IMG/VR virus record: IMGVR_UViG_2778261676_000005
DNA from: a virus
Taxonomy: Duplodnaviria > Heunggongvirae > Uroviricota > Caudoviricetes
Strand: one strand, 5' to 3'
Length of the DNA stretch: 11,071 nt
Shown one piece after another: positions 1 through 8,451 of the stretch. The notes beneath the pieces are model-generated. The model had not been told where the DNA came from and made no database searches. It saw nothing but the letters and a program-made list of their open reading frames with translations. Numbering within the stretch: position 1 is the first letter of the stretch; each line of letters starts with the position of its first letter. The position numbers and the translations under genes were made by a program.

Positions 1-1053
1 TTACGGGGTAATGCCAACCGCTGCCGCCACTTTGTCGCCACTTGGCAGCGTTGCCAGAGGATTGAAACGGAGCGCCGTTTCCAGATGATCCGGTGCCAGA
101 TGAGCGTAACGCATAGTCATTTTTATATCGTGATGTCCGAGGATTTTTTGCAAAGCAAGGATATTTCCACCCGACATCATGAAATGCGCCGCAAACGTAT
201 GGCGCAGAACGTGTGTCAGTTGACCGCGAGGGAGCACGATTGACGTTTTTTCCATCACGGATAAAAATTGAAAATAGCAGTCTGTGAAGAAATTGAACCC
301 ATCAAGCGCCATGATCTCTTCATAAAGCTCTTTACTGATAGGGATGCTTCTGTTTTTCTTCCCCTTCGTTCTTACAAAGGTAATTCGGTATTTAGTCACC
401 TGTGATCGGGTAAGGTTTATTGCTTCTCGCCAGCGTGCGCCTGTGCTTAAGCATATCTTGACTACCAGTGCCAGAATTGGGTCCTGACGTTTGCAATCAG
501 CCAGCAGTTCAACAATCTGCTCATGGGTAAGCCATGCCATCTCTTTTTCTGCGATGGTGAATTTTCGCATGTTCTCCAGTGGGTTTGGATACGACCATTC
601 GCCCAGGCGGGATAGTTCGCTAAAAACACTACTTAGATAGCTTTGCTCCAGGTTAATGGTGACCGGGCTTGCTCCTTTCTTCCATTTCTCGCTGAAGTAG
701 ATCTCACCTGTCAGGCGTTTATCTCGATAGTGGGCAAACATTTTAGAGGTGAGATCGGTTGCAAGGGGATTGCCCAGAGCGTCAACCATCAACAGCAATT
801 TATCATAGACATGCTGCCCAGCGGTTAGAGATTTACCATGTAGTTTGAACCATAGCTCAACCACGTCTTTCAGTGTTCGACGATCCACTGATTCTCCCAG
901 CCAGGGCTTTGCTTCGGTTTCTTCCATCGTATGGCGCTCAAAAGCCAGAGCTTCGCCTTTGGTGGCGAATTGTTTACGCACACGACGCCCACTACGTCCG
1001 GCGGGGTAACATTCGCAAAGCCATTTTCCTGTGGTGAGTTTTCGTACTGCCAT
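1..1053 (-). CDS. int: Tyrosine recombinase / phage integrase, P2-186 family
   Basis: The 376-aa ORF resembles P2 integrase along its length, including the C-terminal catalytic region (..HVLRHTFAAHFMMSGGNILALQKILGH..MTMRYAHL). Start placed at ATG 1053 (MAVRKLTTGKW) because GGAGGG lies 7 nt upstream; the ORF-track start at 1131 is probably an upstream extension. Stop is at 1-3. Confidence 0.9.
   Translation of the reverse strand: MAVRKLTTGKWLCECYPAGRSGRRVRKQFATKGEALAFERHTMEETEAKPWLGESVDRRTLKDVVELWFKLHGKSLTAGQHVYDKLLLMVDALGNPLATDLTSKMFAHYRDKRLTGEIYFSEKWKKGASPVTINLEQSYLSSVFSELSRLGEWSYPNPLENMRKFTIAEKEMAWLTHEQIVELLADCKRQDPILALVVKICLSTGARWREAINLTRSQVTKYRITFVRTKGKKNRSIPISKELYEEIMALDGFNFFTDCYFQFLSVMEKTSIVLPRGQLTHVLRHTFAAHFMMSGGNILALQKILGHHDIKMTMRYAHLAPDHLETALRFNPLATLPSGDKVAAAVGITP
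19..40. repeat. Left copy of 22-bp direct repeat cgctgccgccaYtttgtcgcca; candidate attL core
   Basis: Matches 8217-8238 at 21 of 22 positions (c versus t at position 12). It lies in the last codons of int; the other copy abuts the ogr stop, where P2-type attP is expected. Confidence 0.6.
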
Positions 1054-1239: not shown

Positions 1240-1431
1240 TTATCGCGAGTTTTTAGTACAGATTTTTTTTGATTTACTAATAGTTCCATCATTGCAAACG
1301 AACTTTCCATCGGAGGTACAGTGAGAGACACCTCCCTTTTTCCCAGAACAAGGGTAATTTTTAGCATAGGTAGTTAGTGGGTTTAATAACAAAGAGCATG
1401 ATAAAACCACAAAAAATACCTTACCAAGCAT
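1240..1431 (-). CDS. Small secreted cysteine- and lysine-rich protein (63 aa), function unknown
   Basis: Hydrophobic N-terminus with a likely signal-peptidase site after ..TYA; mature part ~40 aa with 4 Cys. Strong SD (GGGAGGAAA) directly after the cI stop, so probably co-translated with cI. Region is visibly AT-rich. Confidence 0.55.
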
Positions 1432-1446: not shown

Positions 1447-2016
1447 TTACCTAACGTACTTAATTGTTAAACTTATAATTTTCCCAATTATTTCAACATC
1501 TTCTATCTTGCACTCGAAGGCTCTGTTTCCACCTTCAACGAAGATTCTTCCACCGGGTAAACGAGTAATGTCGCGGATTGTTATTTCGCCATCAATACTT
1601 ATTACCCATTTACCGTCACGTATATCATCAAATTCTTTATCACAAATAAATTCAGAATTGTTATCTGTGATGACAAAAGGTTTTTTAAACGTAGAGGGTA
1701 GAAATCCCTTATCAAAAATATAAAAACCGTCTTCACGCAAGGCACCATCAGATAATACATATTTAGCAACTTCCATAGTATTTGTATTACCTGAAGTTTG
1801 CTTTGAACCATGTCCGGTTGTGAGCCAATTAAGCGAGGTGCCCGTTTCAAGGGCGCACTGGATTACCCATTCTGCTGGGAATGAGTCACGCATGTAGCGT
1901 GTGGCGAGTGTACTTTTAGAGATTCCTAAATGATCGCACAACGCCTGTCGAGTTTTGAATCCATAAGCTTCTACCATGCGCTCTATAGCGCCTCGTCCGC
2001 CTTTCTCCAAATTCAT
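1447..2016 (-). CDS. cI: CI-type prophage repressor (phage 186 CI family: N-terminal HTH plus C-terminal domain)
   Basis: N-terminus AIERMVEAYGFKTRQALCDHLGISKSTLATRYMRDSFP is typical of the 186 CI HTH domain; ~190 aa as in 186 CI. Divergent from the early operon. ATG 2016 preferred (GGAG 5 nt upstream) over the GTG at 2022 used by the track. Confidence 0.8.
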   Translation of the reverse strand: MNLEKGGRGAIERMVEAYGFKTRQALCDHLGISKSTLATRYMRDSFPAEWVIQCALETGTSLNWLTTGHGSKQTSGNTNTMEVAKYVLSDGALREDGFYIFDKGFLPSTFKKPFVITDNNSEFICDKEFDDIRDGKWVISIDGEITIRDITRLPGGRIFVEGGNRAFECKIEDVEIIGKIISLTIKYVR

Positions 2017-2040: not shown

Positions 2041-2069
2041 TTGACGATTTCACTGTGCGATCGTATGTT
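2041..2069 (+). promoter_or_regulatory. Candidate sigma70 early lytic promoter (pR-like): TTGACG-N17-TATGTT
   Basis: -35 TTGACG at 2041-2046, 17-nt spacer, -10 TATGTT at 2064-2069, pointing at apl/cII. Flanked by inverted hexamers GTGAAC (2030-2035) and GTTCAC (2086-2091) and by two GATC sites. Confidence 0.4.
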
Positions 2070-2141: not shown

Positions 2142-2363
2142 ATGAGACCTAACATTTCAATCACTCTTACCACGCCTCATGTGACTATTGAACGCTATAG
2201 CGAGCTGACAGGGCTGTCCATCGATACCATCAATGACATGTTGGCTGACGGACGCCTTATCCGTCACCGTCTGCGCAAAGATAAAAAACGTGAAAAAGTG
2301 ATGATCAACATAGCAGCCATGACCGTTGATGCGCTTTCAGAATGCAATCTAAACCTTAATTAG
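2142..2363 (+). CDS. apl: Apl/Cox-like small DNA-binding protein (excision control / repressor of lysogenic promoter), assigned by position
   Basis: First gene of the rightward operon opposite cI, 73 aa, basic C-terminus, GAGGAA upstream. Assignment rests on position in the 186-type switch and size, not on recognised sequence motifs. Confidence 0.5.
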
Positions 2364-2395: not shown

Positions 2396-2905
2396 ATGTT
2401 TGATTACCAAGTTTCCAAACATCCACATTTTGATGAAGCCTGTCGTGCATTCGCATTGCGCCACAACCTAGTGCAACTGGCAGAACGTGCAGGCATGAAT
2501 GTGCAGATTCTGCGGAACAAGCTGAACCCAGCTCAACCTCATTTATTAACCGCACCAGAAATCTGGTTGCTTACCGATCTGACTGAAGATTCAACGCTGG
2601 TAGATGGCTTTCTGGCACAGATTCACTGCCTGCCATGTGTACCGATTAATGAGGTGGCAAAAGAGAAACTGCCGCATTACGTCATGAGTGCAACTGCAGA
2701 GATAGGGCGTGTCGCGGCAGGTGCGGTTTCTGGCGATGTAAAAACCAGTGCAGGCCGTCGTGATGCGATCAGCAGCATTAACTCTGTTACACGACTGATG
2801 GCGCTGGCTGCTGTTTCATTGCAGGCCCGTTTACAGGCTAATCCTGCGATGGCGAGTGCAGTTGATACCGTGACTGGCCTCGGTGCTTCATTCGGTTTGC
2901 TGTGA
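2396..2905 (+). CDS. cII: CII-like lysogeny establishment regulator (phage 186 CII family)
   Basis: Resembles 186 CII from the second Met ([20 protein letters not shown]..), and is 169 aa from that Met, the same length as 186 CII. AGAGG lies 8 nt upstream of ATG 2396. Confidence 0.8.
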
Positions 2906-2912
2906 GGTGCTT

Positions 2913-3113
2913 ATGCTGACGAAAGAACCATCATTTGCATCGCTGCTGGTAAAACAAAGTCCGGCAATGCACTACGGTCACGGCTGGATCATGGGTGAGG
3001 ATGGTAAACGCTGGCATCCGTGCCGTTCACAAGATGAATTGCTGGCAGAACTATCTACGAAAAAACGGGGGAACAAATGGCTATTGAAGGCGCTGCGGCG
3101 ACTGTTCCATTAA
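2913..3113 (+). CDS. Small early protein, unknown function (positional equivalent of 186 fil)
   Basis: ATG 2913 preceded by GTGAGGTG; 66 aa; follows cII in the same operon. No motif recognised. Confidence 0.45.
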   Translation: MLTKEPSFASLLVKQSPAMHYGHGWIMGEDGKRWHPCRSQDELLAELSTKKRGNKWLLKALRRLFH

Positions 3114-3418
3114 GACCCGGTGAACGCCTGAATGGACTTAATCATATTGCGGAGTTAAGGGCGAAAGTTTTTGGTTTGAATATTGAGTCAGAGCTTGAGC
3201 GGTTTATTAAAGATATGCGTGATCCTCGGGATATCAATAATGAACAAAATAAACGGGCACTGGCTGCCATATTCTTTATGGCAAAAATTCCAGCTGAACG
3301 TCATAGCATCAGCATTAATGAGCTGACCACTGACGAAAAGCGGGAGTTGATTAAAGCAATGAATCATTTTCGTGCAGTGGTGAGCTTATTTCCCAGACGG
3401 CTAACCATGCCGAATTAA
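3077..3418 (+). CDS. Early protein, unknown function (113 aa)
   Basis: ATG 3077 preceded by GGGGGAA; overlaps the upstream ORF by 37 nt in another frame. No motif recognised. Confidence 0.45.
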   Translation: MAIEGAAATVPLRPGERLNGLNHIAELRAKVFGLNIESELERFIKDMRDPRDINNEQNKRALAAIFFMAKIPAERHSISINELTTDEKRELIKAMNHFRAVVSLFPRRLTMPN

Positions 3419-3485
3419 CCAACTAATGAAATTAATGGCGTAAACCCGCCGGGCATCCCTTTATCTAAATTCAGGAGAATTGCTT

Positions 3486-3719
3486 ATGCGTAATATTGAA
3501 ACCCTCACGACCAAAACCGGACCGGATGATGCAGGTCTTAATCTTTTACTGACAGAAGCTCGTCTGGAAGAACGCCGGGCAAGGGCTGAAGCAATGGCTG
3601 CTCGCCTCGATAGCCTGGCGTGTCATATCACCTCCCGCCAGCTAAACCACGTCGAAGCGGCAGAACTGCTGCGTGTGACTGCTGAAGCAATCCAGAACGA
3701 AGCGCAGGAGATCCACTGA
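3486..3719 (+). CDS. Small early protein, unknown function (77 aa)
   Basis: ATG 3486 with AGGAG 8 nt upstream (the track start at 3480 is a TTG). Its stop overlaps the next start (TGATG). Confidence 0.5.
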   Translation: MRNIETLTTKTGPDDAGLNLLLTEARLEERRARAEAMAARLDSLACHITSRQLNHVEAAELLRVTAEAIQNEAQEIH

Positions 3720-3946
3720 TGGCTGATGCAATGGATCTCGTACAGCAGCGCGTTGAAGAAGAACGCCAACGCCATATCCGTGCTGCCCGTGCCAAAACGC
3801 CGGGCGTGTCCCGCGTGCTTTGCGTTGAGTGTGAAGCGCCAATTCCGCCAGCACGCCGCCGTGCCATTCCGGGTGTGCAGCTTTGCATTACCTGTCAGGA
3901 AATCGCAGAGCTGAAAGGCAAACATTACAACGGAGGTGCTGTATGA
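3719..3946 (+). CDS. TraR/DksA-family C4 zinc-finger protein (P2 orf82-like)
   Basis: CVECEAPIPPARRRAIPGVQLCITCQ is a CxxC...CxxC finger with the basic spacer typical of phage TraR-like proteins. Stop overlaps the dam start (ATGA). Confidence 0.75.
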   Translation: MADAMDLVQQRVEEERQRHIRAARAKTPGVSRVLCVECEAPIPPARRRAIPGVQLCITCQEIAELKGKHYNGGAV

Positions 3947-4800
3947 GCACCATCCTGAAATGGGCAGGAAATAAAACCGCCATAATGTCCGAACTGAAAA
4001 AGCATCTTCCTGCTGGCCCGCGACTGGTTGAACCTTTCGCGGGTTCCTGTGCAGTGATGATGGAGACGGATTATCCCAGCTATCTTGTTGCGGATATTAA
4101 TCCTGATTTAATCAACCTCTATAAAAAGGTTGCTGCTGATTGTGAGGCGTTTATATCTCGTGCCAGAGCTTTATTTGAGGAAGCAAACAGGGAGGTGGCT
4201 TATTACAACATAAGGCAGGAGTTTAATTACTCCACTGAAATTACTGATTTCATGAAAGCGGTATATTTCCTGTATCTCAATCGTCACGGTTACCGTGGTT
4301 TATGTCGCTATAACAAGAGCGGGAATTTCAACATTCCCTACGGTAATTATAAAAATCCGTATTTCCCTGAAAAAGAAATTCGCGCATTTGCAGAAAAAGC
4401 CCAGCGAGCAACGTTTATCTGCGCCAGCTTTGATGAAACGCTGGCGATGTTGAAGGCGGGGGATGTGGTGTATTGCGATCCGCCGTATGACGGTACGTTT
4501 TCCGGCTATCACACTGATGGTTTCACTGAAGATGACCAGTATCACCTGGCATCCGTTCTTGAACATCGGTCATCAGAAGGACATCCGGTCATTGTTTCTA
4601 ACAGTGACACATCCCTGATCCGTTCGTTGTATCGCAATTTCACCCACCACTACATCAAAGCAAAACGCAGCATCGGTGTGGCAGCTGGCGAGGGTAAATC
4701 AGCAACAGAAATCATTGCTGTTTCCGGGCCGCGCTGCTGGGTGGGATTTGATTATTCGCGTGGCGTGGACAGTTCTGCCGTGTACGGAGTACGTGCATGA
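3943..4800 (+). CDS. dam: DNA adenine methyltransferase, Dam-like (N6-adenine class)
   Basis: N-terminus [11 protein letters not shown] and motif FAGSCAV, plus the catalytic DPPY motif ([11 protein letters not shown]). ATG 3943 follows GGAGG; the longer track ORF from 3883 is an upstream extension. Confidence 0.85.
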
Positions 4801-6359
4801 GTCATGCCGATATGAACAACTGCTGCGGCTTTAACGAGTCTGCCGCAGCATTCTCATGGAACAGCCCGAAAAAGGCCATTAACCCTTATCTGGACCCGGC
4901 GGAAGTTGCGCCGGTTTCTGCGCTTTCAAACCTGATCACTCTGTACGCTGCCGATAACGAGCAGGAACAACTGCGCCGCGAGGCACTGAGTGATCAGGTC
5001 TGGGAGCGTTATTTCTTTAATGAATCCCGTGATCCTGTCCAGCGCGAAATGGAGCAGGATAAGCTAATTAGCCGGGCAAAGCTGGCGCATGAGCAGCAGC
5101 GTTTTAATCCGGACATGGTCATTCTGGCGGATGTCAACGCCCAGCCTTCCCATATCAGCAAGCCGCTGATGCAACGTATTGAATACTTCAGCAGCCTGGG
5201 CAGGCCAAAGGCTTATTCCCGCTATTTACGTGAGACGATTAAGCCATGTCTGGAACGACTGGAGCATGTACGCGACAGTCAGCTATCTGCATCTTTTCGC
5301 TTTATGGCAAGCCATGAAGGGCTGGACGGCCTGCTGATCTTGCCTGAAATGAGTCAGGATCAGGTGAAACGCCTGTCCACCCTGGTAGCTGCGCATATGA
5401 GTATGTGCCTTGATGCAGCTTGTGGTGATTTGTATGCCACCGATGACGTTAAGCCAGAAGAAATCCGCAAGACATGGGAAAGGGTGGCAGCAGAAACCCT
5501 GCGACTGGATGTCATCCCACCTGCGTTTGAGCAACTCCGCCGGAAAAGAAACCGCCGTAAACCCGTGCCCTATGAACTCATTCCGGGTTCGCTGGCGCGT
5601 ATGTTGTGCGCCGACTGGTGGTATCGGAAATTATGGAAGATGCGTTGCGAATGGCGGGAAGAGCAGTTGCGCGCTGTCTGCCTGGTCAGCAAAAAAGCAT
5701 CTCCCTATGTCAGCTATGAAGCTGTGATGCATAAACGTGAGCAGCGCCGTAAGTCGCTGGAGTTTTTTCGTTCTCATGAACTGGTGAACGAAGATGGCGA
5801 CACGCTGGATATGGAAGACGTGGTAAACGCCAGCAGCAGCAACCCTGCGCATCGCCGCAATGAGATGATGGCCTGTGTTAAAGGTCTGGAGCTTATCGCG
5901 GAAATGCGCGGTGACTGCGCCGTTTTCTACACCATCACCTGTCCGTCACGTTTCCATTCCACGCTAAATAACGGCAGGCCCAACCCGACTTGGACAAATG
6001 CGACGGTAAGACAAAGCAGTGATTATCTGGTCGGCATGTTTGCTGCATTTCGTAAGGCGATGTACAAAGCCGGATTGCGCTGGTATGGCGTGCGGGTGGC
6101 TGAGCCGCATCATGACGGTACAGTTCACTGGCACCTGTTGTGTTTTATGCGCAAAAAAGATCGCCGCGCCATTACTGCTTTGTTGCGTAAGTTTGCCATT
6201 CGTGAAGACCGTGAGGAGCTGGGTAATAACACAGGACCACGCTTTAAGTCTGAGCTGATACCGGGGAAGTGCAGGCCGTGGAGCTTGTGGTGCGTGGACG
6301 TCACAAAGAAGTGGATTCCGGCGAGTGGAAGACGGGCGAAAGCAACACCACCAAAGTGA
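4797..6359 (+). pseudogene. A: Replication initiation protein gpA (rolling-circle HUH endonuclease), 3'-truncated
   Basis: Resembles P2 gpA through the HUH motif ([16 protein letters not shown]). The ORF then ends after a short tail that is the out-of-frame reading of the tail-tube-like fragment. At 520 aa it is short of the ~760 aa I recall for P2 gpA. Confidence 0.7.
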
Positions 6360-6544: not shown

Positions 6545-6847
6545 ATGAGCGATAAGCAGACTGAAAAGACCATTCAACTGGATACCCCCATCATGCGCGG
6601 TAAAACAGAAATTACCGAAATTGTGTTGCGTAAACCGCAGTCTGGTGCGCTGCGCGGCACACGCCTGCAGGCCATTATGGATATGGATGTGAACGCGATG
6701 ATGACCGTGATCCCCCGCATCTCCAGTCCGGCACTGACTGCACAGGAAATCGCAGAGATGGACCCGGCAGATCTCACCGCTATGTCGGTTGAGGTTGTCA
6801 CTTTTTTGTTGAAGAAGTCGGTGCTTGCCGGTTTACCGACAGCCTGA
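6545..6847 (+). CDS. E: Tail assembly chaperone gpE
   Basis: 100-aa protein with gpE-like sequence (TIQLDTPIMRGKTEITEIVLRKPQSGALRG); slippery heptamer TTTTTTG near the 3' end; immediately upstream of the tape-measure start. Confidence 0.75.
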   Translation: MSDKQTEKTIQLDTPIMRGKTEITEIVLRKPQSGALRGTRLQAIMDMDVNAMMTVIPRISSPALTAQEIAEMDPADLTAMSVEVVTFLLKKSVLAGLPTA

Positions 6848-6981
6848 CGGTTGACGATCTGGTGGCAGATATCGCCACCATTTTTCACTGGCCGCCATCC
6901 GTTACTGACGTTATGCCGCTGACCGAAGTGCTGGAATGGCGGTATAAAGCGATTCAGAGATGCGGGGCCAACGATGAGTGA
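6545..6981 (+). CDS. gpE+E' frameshift fusion (programmed -1 frameshift, P2 E/E' and lambda G/GT type)
   Basis: From T TTT TTG at 6802-6808 the -1 frame is open to TGA at 6979-6981, reading ..GACRFTDSLTVDDLVADIATIFHWPPSVTDVMPLTEVLEWRYKAIQRCGANDE. It ends overlapping the T start at 6974, as in P2. Confidence 0.6.
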
Positions 6982-7549
6982 TAACAACCTGCGCCTGCAG
7001 GTCATTCTTAATGCGGTTGACAAACTCACCCGCCCATTCCGTGCTGCACAGGCCAGTTCGAAAGAGCTGGCTGGCGCAATCAGAAACTCCCGTGACGCAT
7101 TAAAGCAACTCAATCAGGCGGGTAACAGCCTGGAAAAATTTCGCAAGCTGCAGGCTGATAACAAGAAGTTAGGCGACAGGCTGAACTATGCCAGACAGAA
7201 GGCTAATTTGCTTAGCTCTGAGCTGGAGGCGATGGAGCAACCATCACAAAGGCATTTTGTGGCTTTAGGTCGGCAAACGCTGGCAGTCCAACGCCTGGAA
7301 GAACAACAAAAATATTTGCAGAAGCAAACGGCGCTTGTGCGTGCTGAACTGTACCGGGCGGGAATTTCTGCGAAAGATGATGCGGGAGCAACTGCCCGTT
7401 TAGCCCGTGAAACATCACGTTATAACCAGGAACTTTCGAAACAGGAGGCGCGGCTGAAGCGACTGGGGGAAGCTCAGCGCAGGATGAATGCAGCGCGTGC
7501 CAGTTACCCGCGAACCCGCGAAGAAAGAAAGCACTACGGTGAAGCGTAA
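6974..7549 (+). pseudogene. T: Tail tape measure protein gpT, N-terminal fragment (~170 aa of an expected ~800)
   Basis: N-terminus MSDNNLRLQVILNAVDKLTRPF with coiled-coil sequence is typical of P2-family tape measure proteins. The ORF ends after 191 aa and overlaps the gpD-fragment frame. Confidence 0.7.
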
Positions 7550-7907
7550 GCGCAGGACTAAGAAGCAGAAGAAAGAGCCGGAAGCGAAGCAGGGCGATTA
7601 CCTGGTGGGGACGGATGAAAACGTGCTGGTACTTAATCGCACTTATGCCAACCGGAGCAACGCCGAACGAGCGGCAAAAATGCAGTGGGAACGCCTGCAA
7701 CGCGGCGTTGCGTCATTCTCGCTACAACTGGCGGAAGGGCGGGCAGATCTCTACACGGAAATGCCAGTGAAAGTCAGTGGCTTTAAACAGCCGATAGATG
7801 ATGCGGAATGGACCATTACGACTCTGACACATACTGTCAGCCCGGATAACGGTTTTACAACCAGTATTGAACTCGAAGTGAAGATTGATGATTTCGAAAT
7901 GGAATGA
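7488..7907 (+). pseudogene. D: Tail protein gpD, C-terminal fragment
   Basis: ..YANRSNAERAAKMQWERLQRGVASFSLQLAEGRADLYTEMPVKVSGFKQPIDDAEWTITTLTHTVSPDNGFTTSIELEVK matches the C-terminal ~120 aa of P2 gpD. No N-terminal two thirds and no gpU gene. Sits directly upstream of ogr as in P2. Confidence 0.8.
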
Positions 7908-7997
7908 TTCTTCGCAATGGAGAACTTTTAAGTTTGCAAAATGGAATAATAAGGTATCATTATTGTGAATTTAGCAAAAATGGGGAGAACTCGAAAA

Positions 7998-8238: not shown

Positions 8239-8296
8239 TCGTTAAAAAGCAGTGCTTCTAACATCATGATTTTAAAAGGCATAAATTTCAGACAAC

Positions 8297-8339
8297 AAAA
8301 AACCCATCAACCTTGAACCGAAATGGCGGGGTTGATGGG
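8297..8339 (-). terminator. Candidate intrinsic terminator for ybjL (read on the minus strand)
   Basis: Perfect 10-bp arms CCCATCAACC (8303-8312) and GGTTGATGGG (8330-8339), with an inner CCG/CGG pair, followed on the minus strand by a U-run (plus-strand A-run 8297-8302). About 110 nt downstream of the ybjL stop, and the loop is large, so confidence is modest. Confidence 0.35.
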
Positions 8340-8451
8340 CTCCACAAAATGGGGACATCAAAGAAAAGCAGTGGCACTAATTAAGACTGATGCCCTGCGG
8401 AAAAGTTCTGCGGTTGTGCAAAAAAATTTCATTTTCAGGGCAACTTCAGTT

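Follow-up and report, generated by a model that had tools for sequence, protein, structure and literature searches.

Does an intact DNA methyltransferase gene lying directly upstream of a broken phage replication gene owe its preservation to a benefit for the bacterial host? This question is raised by the window, a stretch of 11,071 nucleotides from a tailed-phage record (IMG/VR IMGVR_UViG_2778261676_000005), in which genes for a TraR-like zinc-finger protein, a Dam-like methyltransferase and replication protein A follow each other with overlapping stop and start codons. A preliminary description of the DNA had proposed that the methyltransferase gene may be retained for epigenetic regulation of the host or for anti-restriction.

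Approximately the first 8400 positions of the window very probably represent a decayed 186-related prophage (Peduoviridae, 'retron-Ec67-type'), inserted at rybB between rcdA and ybjL, of which the flagged genes form the normal early-lytic block (Table 1). The window is 100% identical to contig NONG01000007.1 of GCA_002518955.1. Homology to phage 4LV2017 ends at position 8407, and the attR of this phage maps to ~8289–8307. Of 5426 complete E. coli genomes, 1241 contain the DUF2732–TraR–Dam–A block. An identical gene order with the same overlaps is found in Klebsiella phages KP12 and 4LV2017, in Escherichia phage 813R9, in Yersinia phage MLG42 and in a prophage of E. coli 210221272, and the window block shows 96–99% DNA identity with intact phages and prophages. 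Judged by gene order and sequence similarity, the block is a standard early-lytic cassette and not unusual. The prophage type, which is common in E. coli, Klebsiella and Salmonella, has been known since 1990, when its Dam was described, and the cassette is routinely annotated. The cassette as such is of little import, being a standard part of this type.

Table 1. Features of the prophage part of the window (positions 1 to about 8400).
Feature	Position	Strand	Basis or remark
Prophage integrase, 350 aa, intact	1..1053	-	Pfam Int_N and Phage_integrase; gene call in identical contig
186-type CI repressor, 189 aa, intact	1447..2016	-	Pfam Phage_CI_repr (2.8e-33) and Phage_CI_C (2e-28); gene call in identical contig
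pR-like early lytic promoter (predicted), TTGACG-N17-TATGTT	2041..2069	+	Promoter scan; position matches pR of phage 186
Apl/Cox-like excisionase-repressor	2142..2363	+	phrog_575 'Cox-like excisionase and repressor' (6.1e-31)
CII	2396..2905	+	Pfam Phage_CP76 (3.4e-42)
Fil, cell-division inhibitor	2913..3113	+	Pfam Phage_186_Fil (2.5e-24); phrog_816
DUF5347 protein	3077..3418	+	Pfam DUF5347 (8.7e-33)
Sequence homologous to 186 terminator tR1 (GGCGTAAACCCGCCGGGCAT...)	3433..3465	+	Comparison with 186 tR1
DUF2732 protein (186 Orf79 / P2 Orf80)	3486..3719	+	Pfam DUF2732 (4.1e-29)
TraR/DksA-family C4 zinc-finger protein, 75 aa	3719..3946	+	Pfam and TIGR02419
Orphan Dam-family N6-adenine DNA methyltransferase, 285 aa, predicted GATC-specific	3943..4800	+	Profile and homology searches
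Predicted RNA hairpin in 3' end of dam, 8-bp stem, 5-nt loop, pairing the A start codon	4779..4799	+	Folding prediction
Truncated replication gene A	4797..6359	+	Pfam Phage_GPA; authentic A to 6259, then 32 out-of-frame codons
Deletion junction 1	6257..6259	.	A codon ~487 joined to 3' end of tail tube gene FII; ~19.4 kb lost (4LV2017 8300 -> 27667)
Tail gene E, intact	6545..6847	+	phrog_103; gene calls in identical contig
E'	6862-6981		After tail gene E; gene calls in identical contig
5' fragment of tape-measure gene T	6974..7506	+	phrog_28; mapping
Deletion junction 2	7505..7506	.	T joined to 3' part of D; ~3.7 kb lost (4LV2017 28916 -> 32638)
3' fragment of late control gene D	7507..7907	+	phrog_12925 / phrog_52
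Ogr/B-type late activator, 72 aa	7998..8216	+	phrog_603; PF04606 in identical contig
Host sRNA gene rybB at right prophage end (attR)	8294..8372	-	Rfam RF00110 (105.3 bits)

The overlapping gene block and its expression

Direct reading of the sequence places the TraR-like ORF between an ATG at 3719 and a TGA at 3944–3946, dam between an ATG at 3943 and a TGA at 4798–4800, and the start of gene A at an ATG at 4797, with ATGA stop/start overlaps at 3943–3946 (TraR/dam) and 4797–4800 (dam/A). The upstream DUF2732 protein, which forms one family with 186 Orf79 and P2 Orf80, is joined by a 1-nt overlap, the A of its TGA being shared with the ATG of TraR. Each start is preceded by a Shine-Dalgarno sequence (AGGAG at 3706–3710 for TraR, GGAGG at 3932–3936 for dam, and GGAG at 4786–4789 for A). 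The overlaps are real, yet they are no statistical oddity, since four-base overlaps are frequent in this 186-related phage type; at least six such junctions are annotated in 4LV2017. Among 80 close relatives in IMG/VR, 79–80 have ATGA at both junctions.

No restriction gene adjoins dam, as its neighbours are TraR and A by Pfam, and the antisense and alternative-frame ORFs gave no Pfam match. The best PADLOC model is 'oMTase' (orphan methyltransferase, 1e-111), and the adjacent cognate endonuclease that characterizes a Type II restriction-modification system is absent here. A hidden restriction partner was also considered and rejected after inspection of both strands, where antisense ORFs lacked any family match, and of a sibling prophage. 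In this sibling, from APEC O78, an additional ORF of 273 residues lies between dam and A; it has no Pfam, PADLOC or PDB match, but it does match phrog_887 'queuine tRNA-ribosyltransferase' and is therefore a DNA-modification gene rather than a nuclease. The descriptive part of the preliminary account is thus borne out: the two overlaps lie exactly where it had placed them, Pfam and TIGR profiles agree with its naming of the three genes, and the methyltransferase stands without an adjacent endonuclease. As described below, the same applies to its view that the methyltransferase is intact at the sequence level and gene A broken.

The promoter scan revealed no plus-strand promoter-like site after pR and before position 7933, and hence none between pR and dam. 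From this arrangement, dam is placed in a CI-repressed operon, downstream of a pR-like promoter and beside an intact CI gene. According to its GenBank record, pR of phage 186 is repressed by CI and the terminators are anti-terminated. At the tR1-like site, between the DUF5347 and DUF2732 genes, only a weak hairpin is predicted (z = +0.2).

Co-translation of the three genes, as suggested in the preliminary description, is plausible for the step from dam to A, on the basis of RNA folding and of analogy with phage 186. Besides the conserved overlaps, the A start codon lies in a predicted hairpin, and its probability of being paired (0.97–1.0) ranks first among 30 gene starts of phage 4LV2017; the folds at the TraR and dam starts are not significant (z = -0.73 and -1.87, respectively). 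The GenBank record of phage 186 states that 'translation to end of orf84 appears necessary for translation of A protein'. Orf84 occupies the same slot directly upstream of A and shares the 4-nt overlap, and folding prediction pairs the region around the A start in either phage, but Orf84 is a PAPS-reductase-domain protein whereas its counterpart in the window is a methylase. In more distant relatives other junctions are found, with 1-nt or 20-nt overlaps and GTG starts. Some relatives carry an extra gene between dam and A, which indicates that dam itself does not depend on coupling. The hairpin is a thermodynamic prediction, the close relatives being too uniform for covariation.

Predicted properties of the methyltransferase and the TraR-like protein

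The dam product matches the complete Pfam profile MethyltransfD12 (PF02086; positions 1–253 of 253, 4.1e-78, 263 bits, cutoff 22) and also TIGR00571 (dam; 324 bits, cutoff 114.85), while its score of 291 bits with NF008152, the NCBIfam equivalog of host Dam, is below the cutoff of 441. It is intact at 285 residues, with ATGA at the stop codon, in all 80 close IMG/VR relatives. Residues 4–263 align with E. coli Dam (EcoDam; PDB 2G1P, 4GOL and others), a member of the same D12 fold family (E 4e-74, 47.7% identity). Motif IV, (D/N)PP(Y/F), is conserved as DPPY (D179-P-P-Y182, aligned to EcoDam D181–Y184), whereas the AdoMet motif I, FxGxG, reads F32-A-G34-S-C36 with its last glycine changed to cysteine (EcoDam G39 to C36). 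Six of the seven EcoDam residues that contact GATC (roles from PMC4417163) are identical, i.e. K9, Y119, L122, R124, P134 and Y138, the seventh being changed (N120 to R118). All residues reading base pairs 1, 3 and 4 are kept, as is the intercalating tyrosine. Other differences from EcoDam are a change of R137 to N135, a deletion of five residues after DPPY, a C-terminal tail of 22 residues, and the location of the gene on a phage, in a repressed lytic operon.

The enzyme looks catalytically intact. The preliminary description had suggested searching the catalytic region for target specificity; since DPPY and six of the seven contact residues are kept, the enzyme most likely duplicates the GATC methylation of the host. 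The substitutions at R118, N135 and C36 may modify the preference for flanking bases or alter processivity. It could be argued that a specificity other or broader than GATC would protect DNA where host Dam cannot, in view of the modest identity to EcoDam, the N120R and R137N substitutions and the score under the equivalog cutoff. We regard this as improbable, as the residues reading base pairs 1, 3 and 4 are retained together with the intercalating tyrosine, the orthologue is called a Dam methylase in the Ec67 literature, and the window enzyme is of the alpha/D12 class, outside the beta class of the non-specific M.EcoGII. A kinship to this prophage methylase, a class beta enzyme according to PMC7544214, was considered separately and rejected because of the difference in class. 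The GATC O/E in phage 4LV2017 is 0.75, which is mid-range among four-base palindromes, and this mild under-representation argues neither for nor against an anti-restriction role.

The TraR-like protein matches Pfam zf-dskA_traR (PF01258; 4.4e-11, 43 bits, cutoff 24.9) and TIGR02419 (67.1 bits, cutoff 59.7), and is 68% identical to 186 Orf80 and 46% to P2 Orf82. It resembles the RNA polymerase secondary-channel regulators F-plasmid TraR, λ Orf73 and P2 Orf82 in length, in the C4 zinc finger (C35, C38, C56, C59; CxxC-N17-CxxC) and in residues D3 and D6. In contrast, A8 is replaced by valine, and the N-terminal DxxDxA motif, which reaches the RNA polymerase active site in such regulators, reads DxxDxV. 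In P2 Orf82, incomplete conservation of this motif has been linked to lower activity (PMC9239242).

The broken gene A and the question of host benefit

The product of gene A has 520 residues, compared to 804 in intact relatives. It still matches Pfam Phage_GPA (4.3e-113, profile positions 1–299 of 321) and has the HUH-type H-W-H at residues 444–446, but it diverges after residue ~487–488. The YIAKY active-site motif, which would follow ten residues on (450–454 in P2 A, 498–502 in KP12 A), is missing. The active-site tyrosines of P2 A are reportedly Y450 and Y454 (YxxxY; Odegrip & Haggard-Ljungquist 2001). Initiators of the P2/186 gpA type combine HUH with two tyrosines, and the window protein lacks the latter. 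Judged by this truncation, gene A of the window is a pseudogene; it is full length in 75 of 80 close IMG/VR relatives. By analogy with P2 and 186, the 19.4-kb deletion would also have removed the origin of replication internal to A.

Alignment to phage 4LV2017 maps both deletions as clean microhomology deletions. The first junction was found in none of the 5426 complete E. coli genomes, and three contigs carry the truncated A. Over its remaining 1461 nt, A does not differ at all from the intact gene in the full-length prophage of E. coli 210221272, which argues that the truncating deletion is recent.

These findings bear directly on the suggestion that dam has been domesticated and is under selection in a dead prophage for host epigenetic regulation or anti-restriction. 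Its basis was that dam is full length beside a truncated A, and a dN/dS of 0.10–0.17 for dam against relatives could be read in the same direction. However, A has a dN/dS of 0.04–0.05, and A, TraR and DUF2732 are all as constrained as dam or more; low values for dam are no sign of selection in the remnant since they reflect the history of the phage lineage. As the ratio does not separate the hypotheses, it was dropped as a test. The dead A fragment, identical to intact A, is too young for decay to be visible, and int, cI, apl, cII, fil, DUF5347, DUF2732 and TraR are full length as well. Moreover, the exact remnant is rare, as seen from the contig and genome counts above, and in another strain a different remnant at the same rybB locus has destroyed dam by truncating it at codon 245 and joining it to gpD. 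Finally, dam has no separate promoter-like site while CI is intact, and its predicted specificity is that of host Dam. On these sequence data, retention of dam for the benefit of the host is not supported, and we consider it very improbable. An intact gene beside a broken one in a young prophage remnant is no evidence of domestication.

Possible functions and comparison with known systems

For the intact phage we propose that derepression of CI would allow transcription from pR to read through the tR1-like site into the block. [quoted passage not shown] Ribosomes ending dam would melt the hairpin at the A start codon and then start at the overlapping AUG, and since initiation of A would depend on them, the initiator would be made only together with the methylase. 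Dam would then fully methylate GATC on rapidly produced rolling-circle phage DNA, outpacing scarce host Dam, which would protect progeny DNA from GATC-cutting restriction in the next host, and it may also hold phage GATC sites in a defined state. In the literature, phage Dam is described as anti-restriction and host Dam as limiting for high-copy DNA. In the present strain the cassette would be a silent leftover, CI-repressed and duplicating the activity of host Dam, and it would owe its intact state solely to the recency of the deletions.

A regulatory role is suggested by a GATC at 2059–2062 that abuts the 5' side of the -10 hexamer of pR. The pattern TTGAC[AG]-N12-GATC-N-TAnnnT occurs at 102 of the 108 186-like loci that carry dam and at 15 of the 21 that lack it. 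It recurs amid many operator and spacer sequences that are unrelated to each other, and its GATC positions are the most informative of the spacer (1.25–1.57 bits, against 0.08–1.1 bits elsewhere). Phage Dam could thus methylate this site, and possibly others, and modulate the choice between lysis and lysogeny epigenetically, which could accompany protection. A further hint comes from the P2-like SopEΦ. Its excision is favoured by Dam methylation according to a review, by a mechanism given as unknown. On the other hand, the loci are homologous and hence not independent, phage 186 itself has a pR without the GATC, and many prophages that have no dam of their own also bear the motif, so that host Dam would suffice. 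We therefore consider such control rather unlikely, albeit less so than the two alternatives discussed above. The same reserve applies to a feedback loop on the switch, which could close because Dam, tied to the replication initiator, would be transcribed from the very promoter that bears the conserved GATC. If true, the site might separate freshly replicated phage genomes, still hemimethylated, from those that are fully methylated, and a P2/186-type genetic switch would then be under a Dam-dependent control not described before, to which the conserved GATC provides a lead.

The closest known system is the retron-Ec67 element, which like the prophage of the window is 186-related and carries a Dam ORF (Hsu, Inouye & Inouye 1990 PNAS 87:9454; Dodd & Egan 1996 Virology 219:115). 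The Dam of the window (285 aa) shares 97% identity with a protein that bears the name 'retron EC67 DNA adenine methylase', and is thereby tied indirectly to the original enzyme. Relatives such as 4LV2017 keep the reverse transcriptase downstream of A, whereas the window copy is without the retron region, the 3' third of A, the head and lysis genes and most tail genes. The Ec67 element reportedly maps to 19 min in E. coli, which fits the rcdA–ybjL–grxA location of the window prophage. The element has been reported to encode a functional Dam methylase.

The Dam methylases of phages P1 and T4, which have been described as serving anti-restriction self-protection, are likewise orphan GATC methylases made in lytic growth, the specificity of the window enzyme being predicted. 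Matches were obtained to T4 Dam in the PDB and to P1 Dmt by tblastn, but both are distant (identity of 35% or less) and differ in genomic context and regulation. Within the P2/186-like phages, the position between TraR and A appears to be a slot for DNA-modification cargo translated with the replication initiator, as it holds Dam, a DpdA-like transglycosylase or a PAPS-reductase-like protein in different relatives.

A defective 186-type prophage and its early genes

The window is 100% identical to contig NONG01000007.1 of assembly GCA_002518955.1, and the identical Dam protein is carried in NCBI records as E. coli. Judged by its sequence, the stretch from position 1 to about 8400 is a 186-type (Peduoviridae) prophage. 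The genes int, a small YdcA-like ORF and cI lie on the minus strand, and the plus strand carries, after a pR-like promoter, apl/cox, cII, fil, DUF5347, DUF2732, TraR, dam, A', E, E', T', D' and ogr, in which A', T' and D' are truncated by deletion. The right flank consists of the host genes ybjL, ybjM and grxA. The sRNA gene rybB sits precisely at the right-hand end of the prophage, so that in this prophage family the attachment site overlaps the rybB 3' end.

Mapping against the complete 33.5-kb Klebsiella phage 4LV2017 identified two clean deletions, each with 2-3 nt of microhomology. The first (phage 4LV2017 8301-27666) took away the final third of A together with the retron/moron region, the head and lysis genes and most tail genes; the second (28917-32637) took most of T, the whole of U and the 5' part of D. 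A search of 5426 complete E. coli genomes gave no copy of the first junction, and the truncated A protein was seen in three contigs only. The moron region 3' of A bears defence-type cargo in relatives; that of the sibling prophage integrated at this same site in E. coli APEC O78 encodes a ThsB-like TIR protein (L002 10189-10806), and in 4LV2017 a retron-type reverse transcriptase gene lies downstream of A (L003 11959-12888). The small ORF between int and cI is probably a lysogeny-expressed moron; in E. coli 210221272 its place is taken by a DUF4041/T5orf172 protein, and in the GCA_009790025.1 remnant by an AAA ATPase together with DUF4276. The hairpin following gene E may be part of the E/E' frameshift region, or else a terminator.

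Features of the cassette and its surroundings (window coordinates)
Feature	Coordinates	Strand	Description
Small ORF between int and cI	1240-1431	-	63 aa; hydrophobic N-terminus; PF27300 YdcA and phrog_6000
pR-like promoter	2041-2069	+	
GATC in pR-like promoter	2059-2062		one base 5' of -10 hexamer
DUF2732 ORF	3486-3719		
Shine-Dalgarno, TraR	3706-3710		AGGAG
Inverted repeat flanking TraR start codon	3708-3738		8 bp; GAGATCCA...TGGATCTC; GATC in both arms
TraR-like ORF	3719-3946	+	75 codons; zf-dskA_traR 4.4e-11; TIGR02419 above cutoff
Shine-Dalgarno, dam	3932-3936		GGAGG
TraR/dam overlap	3943-3946		ATGA
dam	3943-4800	+	285 codons; MethyltransfD12 4.1e-78 over whole profile; TIGR00571 'dam' 324 bits
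Predicted hairpin at A start	4779-4799		8 bp
Shine-Dalgarno, A	4786-4789		GGAG
dam/A overlap	4797-4800		ATGA
Truncated A	4797-6359	+	520 codons; Phage_GPA 4.3e-113, profile match cut off at C-terminal end
Hairpin, then T-run	6860-6890	+	strong; TGGTGGCAGATATCGCCACCA TTTTTCAC; directly after tail gene E, at start of E' frame (6862-6981)
sRNA gene rybB	8294-8372	-	Rfam 105 bits

The preliminary description linked a TraR-like ORF, a Dam-like methyltransferase gene and a broken A by two ATGA overlaps. Both overlaps are read directly in the sequence exactly where it placed them, profile searches agree with the TraR-like and Dam-like identities, and A is indeed broken, its homology ending at about residue 487 of a protein that has 804 aa in an intact relative. 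The chain is one gene longer upstream, as the last base of the DUF2732 TGA is the first base of the TraR start codon, and the TraR, dam and A starts each have their own Shine-Dalgarno sequence. Antisense and alternative-frame ORFs of the TraR–dam–A interval gave no matches in a family search. At the TraR start the inverted repeat is the sole element kept in the centroid fold, the overall fold being not significant (z = -0.73). Truncated A keeps the H-W-H motif and its homology stops ten residues short of YIAKY. In P2 A this motif is found at 450-454, in agreement with the active-site tyrosines published as Y450 and Y454. The ori nick site of P2 and 186 is within A, farther downstream than the point where homology stops here, suggesting by analogy that ori would have been deleted too.

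The methyltransferase and its predicted target

Residues 4-263 of Dam align with chromosomal E. coli Dam (EcoDam; E 4e-74, 47.7% identity), and the catalytic DPPY is found at 179-182. EcoDam reads GATC through R124, which contacts Gua4, L122 and P134 at base pair 3, the intercalating Y119, K9 and Y138 at base pair 1, and N120, which gives a base hydrogen bond (PMC4417163). Six of these seven residues are identical in the window protein, the exception being N120, which is replaced by R. Further departures from EcoDam include R137→N and, within motif I, G39→C; the window protein also lacks five residues after DPPY and ends in a C-terminal tail of 22 residues. With the host-Dam equivalog model the protein scores 291, below the cutoff of 441, and is therefore a phage paralogue rather than a duplicated host gene.

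The full profile match and the DPPY motif agree with the earlier view of an apparently intact enzyme, and its orphan status is borne out by the best PADLOC model ('orphan methyltransferase') and by the lack of a nuclease partner among the adjoining genes. As to target specificity, DPPY and the six retained readers favour GATC, whereas the replacement of N120 does not. We infer that Dam would be an active GATC methylase with the specificity of the host enzyme, a prediction with support from the Ec67 literature.

Retention of dam and distribution of the cassette

The apparently intact dam beside a broken A had been read as possible retention for the host's benefit. This proposal is unsupported, and six points argue against it. 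First, the A fragment shows 0 differences over 1461 nt from intact A of E. coli 210221272 (dam differs at 8 positions), implying that the deletion is very recent and that an intact dam is uninformative on selection. Secondly, all other early genes are full length as well. Thirdly, dN/dS of dam (0.10-0.17) is not below that of A, TraR or DUF2732. Fourthly, an independent remnant at the same locus in GCA_009790025.1 (L010 8001-9491) has lost about 25.6 kb in a single deletion that starts at dam codon 245 and ends within D, leaving a 496-aa ORF in which the first 245 residues of Dam are joined to the C-terminal part of gpD. This ORF is annotated as a Dam-family methyltransferase, and comparable Dam–gpD fusion proteins occur in further records (P0052, P0137). 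Fifthly, the sole plus-strand promoter-like site upstream of dam in a promoter scan is the pR-like one, beside an intact cI; 186 pR is repressed by CI (phage 186 GenBank record). Finally, redundancy with host Dam is predicted.

The TraR–dam–A cassette is a standard one, known before and annotated as a matter of routine. Of the 5426 complete E. coli genomes, 1241 contain TraR–dam DNA, and the Dam protein is 97% identical to one named 'retron EC67 DNA adenine methylase'. Identical order and overlaps were found in the intact Klebsiella phages KP12 and 4LV2017, in Escherichia phage vB_EcoM-813R9, and in a full-length prophage with an 804-aa A at the same rcdA/ybjL site of E. coli 210221272. Among 80 close IMG/VR relatives, dam always encodes 285 aa, ATGA is found at its start in 79 and at its stop in all 80, and 75 have a full-length A of 795-806 aa. 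Farther relatives keep the order but differ in the overlap (1 nt in Yersinia phage MLG42, 20 nt in ST13-OXA48phi12.1).

Proposed coupling, early promoter and cargo in relatives

According to the GenBank record of phage 186, 'translation to end of orf84 appears necessary for translation of A protein', and a terminator, tM1, works 'in absence of translation of A gene'; 186 orf84 sits where dam does in the window and overlaps A by the same 4 nt. In RNA folding the A start codon is predicted to be paired within a hairpin (P(paired) 0.97-1.0; z -2.4 in a 121-nt context), and among 30 gene starts of 4LV2017 that of A ranks first for pairing probability and second for stability of the local fold. In close relatives, changes in the hairpin are limited to the loop or to one G-U-compatible stem change; distant relatives, 186 and P2 have other sequences, yet the Shine-Dalgarno or start codon is also predicted to be paired. 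Structure-mediated coupling into A is plausible and supported by these models, short of proof. The coupling partner would be whichever gene adjoins A upstream: a 273-aa ORF separates dam and A in APEC O78, and the PAPS-reductase gene orf84 directly follows dam in 32 IMG/VR loci (from L097-L166). The co-translation proposed earlier is thus plausible as coupling into A, but not as a tie specific to dam.

In the intact phage, dam would be expressed with the replication initiator, and its product would methylate GATC on the fast-replicating phage DNA. Host Dam has been described as rate-limiting for high-copy DNA, and orphan methylases of phages and plasmids as anti-restriction, shielding DNA bound for export. 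GATC occurs in the phage at an unremarkable frequency (O/E 0.75).

Among 186-like loci (L001-L007 and L010-L171), 102 of the 108 with dam and 15 of the 21 without it have the pattern TTGAC[AG]-N12-GATC-N-TAnnnT, combined with many unrelated spacers and operators; these counts are not independent events, as the loci are related by descent. When 72 distinct promoter sequences are compared, the information content is 1.25-1.57 bits at the GATC and 0.08-1.1 bits elsewhere in the spacer. The pR of 186 is without that GATC, and P2 Pe has one elsewhere in the spacer. SopEΦ is a P2-like phage. Its excision, according to a review, is favoured by Dam methylation through an unknown mechanism. The pR-like promoter may be a Dam-sensitive lytic promoter, which we regard as a lead and not a result.

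The TraR-like protein shares 68% identity with 186 Orf80, 46% with P2 Orf82 and 39% with F TraR, and retains D3, D6 and the four cysteines. Orf73 of λ binds RNA polymerase and inhibits the promoters of rRNA and ribosomal-protein genes, P2 Orf82 does so more weakly, and the DxxDxA motif matters (PMC9239242); in the window this motif reads DxxDxV.

The TraR–A slot is filled in relatives by DNA-modification or DNA-processing cargo. The 273-aa APEC O78 ORF (L002 5303-6124) matches phrog_887 'queuine tRNA-ribosyltransferase' (7.5e-96), with no match in Pfam, PADLOC or PDB; it probably codes for a DpdA-like DNA transglycosylase and would then be the second gene for DNA modification in the slot. The phage 186 record labels the ORFs between TraR (Orf80) and A as of 'unknown function' despite recognisable domains. 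In 186 the slot (L009 4891-6748) encodes an RNase_T exonuclease (Orf81), a DUF5405 protein (Orf83) and a protein with a PAPS-reductase domain (Orf84).
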